Of a stretch of 1,428 nt of DNA, positions 1 to 1,428 are shown piece after piece. The notes beneath the pieces were generated by a model. The model ran no database searches, was not told the DNA's origin, and saw only the letters and a program-made list of their open reading frames with translations. The stretch is from Escherichia coli. GTDB taxonomy: Bacteria; Pseudomonadota; Gammaproteobacteria; Enterobacterales; Enterobacteriaceae. The stretch lies in the NCBI RefSeq assembly GCF_003334785.1, contig NZ_QOWV01000060.1, one strand, 5' to 3'. Position 1 is the stretch's first letter; the number at the start of each line of letters is the position of its first letter. Both the position numbers and the translations under genes were made by a program.

Positions 1-119
1 GTGGAGGTGAAGGCCACGCCGGGTTCATGAAGATGGCGGTCCAGGGTTTTCAGGGCCCGTTGAATGAGGCTGCGCTCGCCGGGCGTCATCTCTCCGGGCA
101 GAAAGGAAAGCTGTTGCAT
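1..119 (-). CDS. RadC-like JAB/MPN-domain protein (YeeS/YfjY/YkfG family), 5' partial: only the N-terminal 39 codons are in the window, the C-terminus lies beyond position 1
   Basis: Manual minus-strand translation from the ATG at 119..117 gives MQQLSFLPGEMTPGERSLIQRALKTLDRHLHEPGVAFTS, open to the window edge. I recognise this as the N-terminus of the RadC-like proteins of E. coli CP4-type cryptic prophages. A purine-rich SD-like stretch GGAGAGAAG (124..132) lies 4-9 nt upstream. An in-frame ATG at 134..132, directly after the upstream stop (TGAATG), is an alternative start. Absent from the ORF track because the in-window part is short. Confidence 0.75.
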   Translation of the reverse strand, partial: MQQLSFLPGEMTPGERSLIQRALKTLDRHLHEPGVAFTS

Positions 120-123
120 TGTA

Positions 124-132
124 CTTCTCTCC
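124..132 (-). promoter_or_regulatory. Shine-Dalgarno-like ribosome-binding site for the RadC-like gene
   Basis: Minus-strand sequence reads TGA-ATGGAGAGAAGTACA-ATG; the GGAG/GAGAAG purine run sits at a suitable distance upstream of the ATG at 119. Confidence 0.5.
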
Positions 133-134
133 AT

Positions 135-608
135 TCAGTCGATGATGCGCATAATGGCGCTGCATTCCGGATGCTGCAGGGCGTAATCCCGCAGCCGGTA
201 ATAATGGACCGTCATGGCATAACACTCCGTACGACAGGCATGATGACTGTACGTCATCAGACAGGCAGCAATGCCGGCAGCTTCCGGACTCATTTCAGCG
301 CGGTTACCGTTCATGGCATTGAACAGTACCCATGTTTCGTCATCATCGTCATCCGGTTCGGGTGCCATAAATGCCCCGCCGTTGTTCAGGGTGTACAGAT
401 TCCAGATACCACCGCAGTAGTCTTCGCACAGACGGTCCATCCAGCCGAAGACACGGGGCTCCAGGGTCACCCACTGTGGAATGAGGCCAAAGTGCTGCGG
501 CCAGAAGCTGATGCGCTGTTCATCAGGGACGAGGGTGGCAACCAGTTGTTGCAGGTCAGTCTCCGGTGCACAGGCCGAGGAGGTGGTGTTCTGAGACAAT
601 GTTTTCAT
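135..608 (-). CDS. Antirestriction protein, ArdB/KlcA family (Pfam Antirestrict-type; YfjX/YafX-like), 157 aa, complete
   Basis: Minus-strand ORF ending at TGA (137..135). Protein from the internal ATG at 608..606: MKTLSQNTTSSACAPETDLQQLVATLVPDEQRISFWPQHFGLIPQWVTLEPRVFGWMDRLCEDYCGGIWNLYTLNNGGAFMAPEPDDDDDETWVLFNAMNGNRAEMSPEAAGIAACLMTYSHHACRTECYAMTVHYYRLRDYALQHPECSAIMRIID. The VPDxxRxxFWPxHFG...PQW, CxxYxGGxW, LxNGG, SxEAAGI, YxLRD and HPE motifs match my recollection of KlcA/ArdB-family proteins. This start is preferred over the track's ATG at 785 because it has a strong AAGGA ribosome-binding site 8 nt upstream and gives the typical family length of ~150-160 aa. Confidence 0.85.
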   Translation of the reverse strand: MKTLSQNTTSSACAPETDLQQLVATLVPDEQRISFWPQHFGLIPQWVTLEPRVFGWMDRLCEDYCGGIWNLYTLNNGGAFMAPEPDDDDDETWVLFNAMNGNRAEMSPEAAGIAACLMTYSHHACRTECYAMTVHYYRLRDYALQHPECSAIMRIID

Positions 609-616
609 GTATGAAA

Positions 617-621
617 TCCTT
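617..621 (-). promoter_or_regulatory. Shine-Dalgarno site (AAGGA) for the antirestriction gene
   Basis: Minus-strand sequence reads TTACAAGGATTTCATACATG; AAGGA lies 8 nt upstream of the ATG at 608. Confidence 0.65.
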
Positions 622-794
622 GTAATGTGAATAAATGAGAGGGAGTAAAGGTCGGGAGCTGGCAACATCACGTTCATCACTGACCGTGATGACCCGGTAA
701 TATCAGGGATGAATGATATTCGGCTGAAATTCCGGACAGCCGTACGCGTAACCGTTCCGGTCACAGACGGATGGCCTGATGCCATTGCCTGTAC

Positions 795-812
795 TCAGTC
801 TGCACAGACTGA
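795..812. repeat. 18 bp near-perfect palindrome tCAGTCTGcaCAGACTGa (candidate operator or short hairpin)
   Basis: Plus strand 795..812 is tcagtctgcacagactga: 8 bp arms (795..802 and 805..812) around a 2 bp centre. No downstream T-run on either strand, so it does not look like an intrinsic terminator. Confidence 0.45.
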
Positions 813-909
813 TTTCTCCGGGACGGTAAAGCAGACGGGTATACCAGGCGCACAGGTCATCATCAGAAATGGAACGACATCCCGGCAGCGCCTTCAGGGA
901 CAGGCTGCA

Positions 910-1428
910 TCAGCGCAGGCTCTCCAGCAGCGTTTCCGCCATCACCCACAATGCGCGGTTGAGCTTAATATCGGTGTCGATGCTGTGAATGGCACGGGTG
1001 TGGATACGTTTTCCTCTGGCACTGCGACCGGAAATCCCGCCTTTCAGCATATTCTCCTGGATGGTCTGATAAGTACTCCACAGGTCCTTACCGTAATCCT
1101 CCCTGCGTCGCGGTGTCAGAATGTCAGCGGTGGTGACGGGCTGATGTTCGTCACCATAACGGTAAGTCAGTGCCGCCTGTGCCAGCGCCTGGCGTGCCGG
1201 TGGCGGCAGAATCAGCGACTGCATGGCATCACGCTTTTCCTCAATCCGGTCAAAAACCCCCACCACCTCGTAAGCCCCTTCAATGACTCTGTCCACCACA
1301 TTTCCCCGGTGCGGAACACGCACTTCCCCCAGAGACTGACCACAGACGCATCCGTTCTGGCAGACGAACCTGAAGTAACCCGGCAGCATCTGGTAGCTGG
1401 AGGTACCGTCATGAGAGTTGAGCAGAAT
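910..1428 (-). CDS. DUF932-family protein (YfjQ/YafZ-like), 3' portion: C-terminal 172 codons plus stop are in the window, N-terminus lies beyond position 1428
   Basis: The track ORF 910..1389 (-) remains open in the same frame up to the window edge. Manual translation of 1428..1390 gives ILLNSHDGTSSYQ, running into MLPGYFRFVCQNGCVCG..., so the track's Met at 1389 is internal. The stop is TGA at 912..910. The NSHDG(T/S)S and FxCxNG motifs fit my recollection of DUF932 proteins, which commonly sit upstream of antirestriction genes in enterobacterial islands. The family label is less certain than the call that it is coding. Confidence 0.7.
   Translation of the reverse strand: MLLNSHDGTSSYQMLPGYFRFVCQNGCVCGQSLGEVRVPHRGNVVDRVIEGAYEVVGVFDRIEEKRDAMQSLILPPPARQALAQAALTYRYGDEHQPVTTADILTPRRREDYGKDLWSTYQTIQENMLKGGISGRSARGKRIHTRAIHSIDTDIKLNRALWVMAETLLESLR

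Follow-up and report, generated by a model that had tools for sequence, protein, structure and literature searches.

Which start codon does the antirestriction gene of this Escherichia coli island use? The stretch of DNA analysed here, which we call the window, comprises 1428 bases, and its minus strand carries three genes. The frame of the antirestriction gene, a member of the ArdB/KlcA family, is open on that strand from an ATG at 785..783 to the stop at 137..135. This makes an ORF of 216 aa, whose translation begins MASGHPSVTGTVTRTAVRNFSRISF, as quoted in an earlier note on this DNA; an in-frame TGA lies at 797..795. The ORF, its ATG and the stop beyond it are where that note had placed them. 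An ATG inside the frame, at 608, would give a protein of 157 aa. Over-long start-codon calls are a general phenomenon in bacterial annotation. We put the probability at about 0.9 that the 157-aa protein from ATG 608 is the real product and that the extension upstream of it is a non-coding chance frame.

The window is 98-99.8% identical to chromosomal islands in many E. coli strains. The gene order in these islands is DUF932, antirestriction, JAB/RadC, DUF987, YeeU-type antitoxin and CbtA toxin, with an integrase remnant adjoining. E. coli TW10722 and LD39-1 match the whole window at 99-100% identity. The window lies in an E. coli island of the CP4-44/CP4-57 type, and we propose that its minus-strand genes form part of an operon running from DUF932 through a small Cys-rich protein, ArdB, RadC/JAB and DUF987 to CbeA/CbtA. 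Antisense to the whole antirestriction gene lies an ORF of 195 aa (27..614, plus strand) that is annotated in no record seen; it is a shadow ORF typical of a GC3-rich gene. The features discussed below are collected in Table 1.

Table 1. Features of the window, in order of position.
Feature	Position	Strand	Remarks
RadC/JAB (YeeS-like) gene, 5' part	1..119	(-)	ATG 119..117; begins 15 nt past the ArdB stop
Antirestriction gene, ArdB/KlcA family, 157 aa; very probably the real CDS	135..608	(-)	ATG 608..606
Leader between small-gene remnant stop and ArdB start, probably untranslated	609..702	(-)	In-frame GTG/ATG/TTG at 680-663 lack a Shine-Dalgarno site
In-frame extension of 59 codons; very probably a non-coding chance frame	609..785	(-)	Shares 703..785 with the small-gene remnant, read in another frame
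Shine-Dalgarno AAGGA	617..621	(-)	8 nt before ATG 608
Single extra A (GGGTC-A-TCACGG) keeping the ArdB frame open upstream	690..690	(-)	Alignment A1
Pseudogene remnant of the 79-87-aa Cys-rich gene	703..910	(-)	ATG 910..908; original stop TGA 705..703
AGG codon, Trp58 to Arg	775..777	(-)	Trp58 at least 90% conserved
TAT codon, Cys36 to Tyr (CAWC motif)	841..843	(-)	Cys36 family-invariant, in 31 sequences
38-nt deletion junction between AGGCG direct repeats	888..889	(-)	Frameshifts the small gene
DUF932-family gene, 3' part	910..1428	(-)	Stop TGA 912..910; runs off the window

The start of ArdB

Profile and structure comparisons placed the gene firmly in its family. The Pfam model PF03230 matched over its full length (E 7e-37, model positions 1-92 of 92) at residues 121-216 of the long ORF, and PHROG 10132 matched (E 1e-63) from residue 21 of the 157-aa form. 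The PDB entry 2WJ9 matched (E 3.5e-126), with 3 differences over 157 aa. KlcA (PDB 2KMG, E 5.5e-21) aligned from its residue 3 to its C-terminus, beginning at residue 17 of the 157-aa form; the Pfam, PHROG and KlcA alignments all begin at or after that residue. NCBIfam holds no family for either form of ArdB. In ArdB homologues, about 20-28 variable residues precede a conserved block, LVAT-VPDEQRISFWPQHFG. A size of about 130-160 aa, with an N-terminus shortly before the LVAT-VPDEQR-FWP block, fits the 157-aa form and does not fit the 216-aa form.

Pairing of the mRNA with the 3' end of the 16S rRNA also favours the internal ATG. At ATG 608 it reaches -5.2 kcal/mol, the best value among the in-frame candidate starts, against a mean of -2.6 kcal/mol for the window background. 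The earlier note had called the AAGGA at this ATG a strong site. The site is present, at 8 nt, and marks the best start, but its strength is only moderate, since 22% of window positions score just as well. Either AAGGA or GAGG stands in the same place at Enterobacter, Klebsiella, Mixta, Yersinia and Citrobacter loci. Translation of ArdB would start at ATG 608 behind the AAGGA site and would give 157 aa.

When the 216-aa ORF was used as the query, 1443 homologues were found, typically of 150-161 aa and covering 73% of the query, which is 157/216. Across ten genera, ArdB homologues measure 143-164 aa. We aligned 14 sequences, 13 of them homologues, drawn from E. coli paralogues, Enterobacter, Hafnia, Salmonella, Citrobacter, Pantoea, Klebsiella and Yersinia. 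The N-terminal Met of all 13 homologues aligns to M60 of the 216-aa ORF and none spans the extension, which bears out the suggestion that the extension does not resemble the family N-terminus, although this evidence is partly circular because homologue N-termini are themselves gene calls and PGAP places starts by homology. PGAP annotates exactly the 135..608 CDS (474 nt) as WP_000855059.1, and it gives the 157-aa form in all 8 of the related records inspected. The exact 157-aa sequence is found on at least 1000 contigs in a collection of 15 billion proteins.

The spacing of genes at other loci is an argument independent of that circularity. A gap of just 16 nt lies between the stop of the preceding small gene and the ArdB ATG in Enterobacter ludwigii, a Klebsiella-type contig and Mixta, and this spacing was counted in four genera. 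Those loci have AAGGA or GAGG before the ATG and no in-frame start upstream of it.

Published activity data point the same way. A synthetic gene was used to express ArdB-CFT (157 aa, E. coli CFT073, NP_752219), and EcoKI restriction was relieved by a factor of 710 in vivo (PMC2836571, Tables 1-2). In vivo this protein, which is 98% identical to the window product, counters type I restriction and shows no anti-modification (PMC2836571, Table 2). Function thus needs no more than the 157-aa form. In the same study, KlcA was structured from its own residue 7 (PMC2836571). From the Shine-Dalgarno site, the conservation and the activity of this 98%-identical 157-aa construct, we infer that ribosomes start at 608 in vivo. 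The earlier note had preferred 157 aa as the product, and that preference is now backed by the Shine-Dalgarno site, the homologue N-termini, the 16-nt spacing, the PGAP records and the activity of ArdB-CFT.

The 59-codon extension

Translation of the full ORF from ATG 785 would add a 59-residue N-terminal domain to ArdB, and the frame is indeed open and ATG-initiated. Several observations make such a product extremely unlikely. ATG 785 has no convincing Shine-Dalgarno site, as had been supposed, and its pairing energy (-2.2 kcal/mol) is no better than the background mean given above. Nor is the length of the open frame noteworthy, as the earlier note had held it to be: 62 codons are open before ATG 608, and this is within chance because 9.7% of 5000 dinucleotide-preserving shuffles of 609..909 were open for at least as long. 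The same collection of 15 billion proteins has no entry with the exact 216-aa sequence. The frame contains further in-frame starts, namely GTG 764, GTG 680, ATG 677, GTG 671, ATG 668 and TTG 665, and we found no Shine-Dalgarno site before any of these six.

The comparison of composition that the earlier note had proposed also separates the extension from the gene. The extension has GC contents of 0.42/0.53/0.53 at codon positions 1/2/3, whereas the values are 0.58/0.45/0.66 for the ArdB gene and 0.63/0.44/0.66 for DUF932. In composition, then, the extension is not like coding sequence. Its first 27 codons (785..705) are the C-terminal half of another gene, the small Cys-rich gene described below, read one base out of register, and the remainder (702..609) is leader. 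The 177 nt that are open upstream of ATG 608 would then consist of a 94-nt leader (609..702) and the 3' half of the small gene. They would not be translated as ArdB, whose frame would cross the small-gene remnant out of frame.

The 216-aa form also needs the extra A at 690, and many copies do not have this base. We aligned the minus strand of 590..930 with the corresponding sequence of six E. coli relatives (alignment A1), and the A was missing from 5 of the 7 copies. Without it, the frame upstream of ATG 608 closes at TGA 705..703, and the A- loci L003 and L005 have only 31 codons open upstream. With it, the change of register would carry the frame beyond this TGA, which is the small gene's own stop, and leave it open. 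E. coli copies of 590..930 number about 4300. In marginal counts, each allele being counted separately here and below, 1398 E. coli records have the exact 64-mer with the A as their best match, and 959 have the exact 63-mer without it. The long extension rests on a polymorphic one-base indel and therefore does not behave as a coding N-terminus would. The extra A also extends an inverted repeat to TCATCAC-GGTCA-GTGATGA (674..692, minus strand, 7-bp stem).

A decayed small gene upstream of ArdB

The region 703..910 is not merely leader: it holds the frameshifted remnant of a small gene, newly found here. Residues 19-81 of WP_001164966.1 map to 894..706 with 95% identity (tblastn, E 6e-45). The small gene's ATG at 910..908 overlaps the DUF932 stop codon (TGA 912..910, as TGATG), and a GGAG Shine-Dalgarno site is kept in the window. 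From this ATG, only MQPVPEGAAGMSFHF is read before a stop, an ORF of 15 codons compared with 79-87 codons in intact copies. The window copy is a pseudogene because it carries the frameshifting 38-nt deletion together with the replacements Cys36Tyr and Trp58Arg. Normally the small gene would follow DUF932 by translational coupling through TGATG, and in this copy it would be dead.

After the deletion, the core of the small gene happens to lie in the DUF932 frame right behind its TGA (LLESLR, stop, CSLSLKALPGCRSISDDD, within 703..930 on the minus strand). Read-through of the DUF932 TGA could in principle still make the small Cys-rich protein, as 703..930 translates in one frame as LLESLR, stop, CSLSLKALPGCRSISDDDLCAWYTRLL and onward to IIHP and a second stop. 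However, agreement with the DUF932 frame is most likely a one-in-three chance coincidence, and no known read-through context is present at the TGA. The mutation of both Cys36 and Trp58 indicates relaxed selection, and the core frame contains no ATG, GTG or TTG. We consider the chance that the protein is still made in this way to be close to nil, and we treat the window copy as a pseudogene in what follows.

Of 5426 E. coli genomes, about 66 carry the 38-nt deletion junction by the same marginal counting. A separate deletion, of 76 nt between CCCGGAG repeats (alignment A1 columns 71-146), is found in three other loci (L006-L008). The small gene has thus been hit by at least two independent direct-repeat deletions, a TA insertion and substitutions, and it decays repeatedly in E. 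coli. Other genera, unlike E. coli, keep it intact.

The intact small gene and its family

Where it is intact, the small gene encodes WP_001164966.1, an 81-aa protein. In strains that include 81009, PGAP annotates it as a hypothetical protein whose gene lies between those for DUF932 and ArdB. The family comprises 184 proteins at E up to 1e-3, spread across Enterobacterales. Homologues of 79-87 aa with 52-65% identity occur in Enterobacter, Citrobacter, Klebsiella, Salmonella, Yersinia, Mixta and other genera, and they share the invariant core R-S-x-S-D-D-D-x-C-x-x-C ... Y-R-P-G-E-x-S-x-C ... P ... Y. At 10 of 10 loci the gene stands directly behind DUF932, with its start overlapping the DUF932 stop (TGATG or TAATG), and upstream of the antirestriction gene. 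Pairwise divergence within the family is 0.26/0.26/0.50 at codon positions 1/2/3. By these measures of sequence, the small gene is real and conserved, and it is uncharacterised.

Searches of Pfam, NCBIfam, PHROGs and the PDB gave no significant relative of the small protein. The best PDB profile match, to a sialidase (E 0.023), was judged to be due to chance. AlphaFold2, run on a 31-sequence alignment, returned no usable model (pLDDT 42), and a search of the literature on the gene module found nothing on the small ORF.

In the K-12 island CP4-6 (L017), yafZ (DUF932) and yafX (ArdB) are separated by ykfK, ykfL, yafY, ykfB and ykfF. A tblastn search downstream of yafZ in CP4-6 detected no small-gene remnant, and the small gene is therefore not universal in these islands. 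At a Yersinia intermedia locus (L011), a terminator-like hairpin with a T-run lies at 3336..3353 (plus strand), in the 129-nt gap between the small and antirestriction genes, an indication that this lineage transcribes ArdB on its own.

The leader and its possible regulatory role

Conservation of 609..800 might instead reflect a cis-acting element that controls ArdB at the RNA or DNA level, for instance a promoter or a structured leader. Between columns 147 and 300, alignment A1 shows hardly any variation even though the flanking coding sequence differs among the copies, and the extra A lengthens the hairpin described above. However, an Rfam covariance scan of the window (E up to 1) and scans of the window for sigma-70-like promoters and intrinsic terminators returned nothing. 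The leader RNA folded no better than its shuffles (z 0.07 with the extra A, as in the window, and 1.05 without it), and the idea of a riboswitch or structured leader was dropped because of this. The conserved block is mostly the coding core of the small gene, which is conserved at the protein level across genera, and other genera have no such leader. Conservation of 703..800 at the nucleotide level among the E. coli copies is accounted for by that coding core, and the copies are also recent relatives. A control element of this kind is thus very improbable. A Frpo-like single-strand promoter upstream of ArdB, of the kind known from the leading regions of plasmids, was considered separately and rejected: small-gene coding explains the conserved block, and the folding is unexceptional.

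Longer forms of ArdB in public data

The earlier note had warned that automated annotators may call a long form. Such calls do exist, as a 181-aa chain in the PDB, as 180-aa ENA calls and as fused ORFs. The chain of 2WJ9, named 'intergenic-region protein', has 181 aa and begins MMNVMLPAPD at a codon equivalent to GTG 680. It reads MMNVMLPAPDLYSLSFIHITRISY-MKTLSQ and so starts 24 residues upstream of the RefSeq start. These 24 extra residues are probably leader sequence brought in by an over-long start call. The 180-aa ENA calls form a cluster of 191 members (P0142).

Might a form of 177-181 aa, started at GTG 680, ATG 677 or ATG 668 and corresponding to 2WJ9, be native or co-produced with the shorter one? 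The in-frame starts are present in all seven aligned E. coli copies, and the 24 codons from GTG 680 are open throughout. The 181-aa protein was soluble and was expressed and crystallised, and there are the 180-aa ENA calls. However, these starts have no Shine-Dalgarno site, and starts 680-665 have pairing energies of -2.2 to -3.2 kcal/mol, which is background level. The 24 residues have no counterpart in other genera, four of which have just 16 nt upstream of the ATG. Read by eye, the differences among E. coli paralogues in the 24-residue stretch are mostly non-synonymous. In addition, the 157-aa construct was fully active in vivo (PMC2836571), and the KlcA fold starts at about residue 21 of the 157-aa form. 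We consider a native intermediate form very unlikely, and we retain ATG 608 as the start.

Fused ORFs arise from a second indel. A TA insertion near window position 792, combined with A 690, gives one continuous ORF, 271 aa long when read from ATG and 284 aa when read from GTG, made up of the small protein's initial 52 residues, a 59-residue out-of-frame stretch and ArdB. We located the fused ORF at 246..1100 (minus strand) of locus L004, equivalent to window 135..~950, and the TA+/A+ haplotype is common in E. coli, strain NCCP15648 being one of its carriers. Taken as a marginal count, the exact 68-mer with the TA is found in 1516 records. On short contigs the fusion is put out by gene callers as one protein (P0031, 193 members); PGAP makes no such call. 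TA+/A- copies stop at TGA instead (P0024, P0050).

One could imagine that the small Cys-rich protein is a translationally coupled partner in a DUF932-ArdB-RadC module, and that on the TA+/A+ fusion ribosomes coupled from DUF932 make a 271-aa ArdB beside the 157-aa one. In that case, the 216-aa frame of the window would be a degraded relative of a dual-isoform arrangement. We hold this combined idea to be highly unlikely. The 216-aa ORF, the 180/181-aa form and the fusions on short contigs would all be artefacts of an unconserved open frame, with 157 aa as the product.

Some stranger ORFs were also seen. One of 317 aa, on 8 contigs (P0138), joins about 90 N-terminal aa of DUF932 to the frame of the small-gene/ArdB fusion, and three further clusters (P0136, P0147, P0149) are ArdB proteins with internal tandem duplications. 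All four may be real rearrangements or assembly artefacts.

Discussion

For annotation, the main value of this analysis is that the start given in RefSeq for a well-known antirestriction gene stands confirmed. The extension is ordinary and allele-specific, and the product is the already known 157-aa ArdB. What the earlier note had missed were the further in-frame starts, the decayed small gene within the supposed leader and the single-base insertion behind the long frame. The small gene has no bearing on how ArdB works. As a conserved, unnamed gene that is often missed or broken, it is possibly worth a functional look where it is intact.

The extension resembles other spurious N-terminal extensions, or over-long start calls: its upstream ATG has no Shine-Dalgarno site, conservation or coding composition to support it, and pipelines disagree on the start. 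It differs from plain spurious extensions over intergenic DNA in that part of it is the out-of-frame relic of a neighbouring gene. That relic belongs with the WP_001164966.1 family, since 706..894 corresponds to residues 19-81 and the overlapping ATG and the Shine-Dalgarno site are retained. Unlike intact members, the window copy has a 38-nt frameshift and has lost Cys36 and Trp58 to replacement.

The gene itself is a member of the ArdB/KlcA antirestriction family (PF03230), which includes KlcA (PDB 2KMG) and YafX and YfjX of K-12. Its nearest known relative is ArdB-CFT, which is ORF14 of PAI II in CFT073 and the subject of PDB 2WJ9. The window product stands 3 residues apart from it over the shared stretch, and both lie in the same island context, with RadC/JAB and CbtA/CbeA genes adjoining. 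The proteins do not differ substantially, and what is peculiar to the window allele is only its longer upstream open frame.
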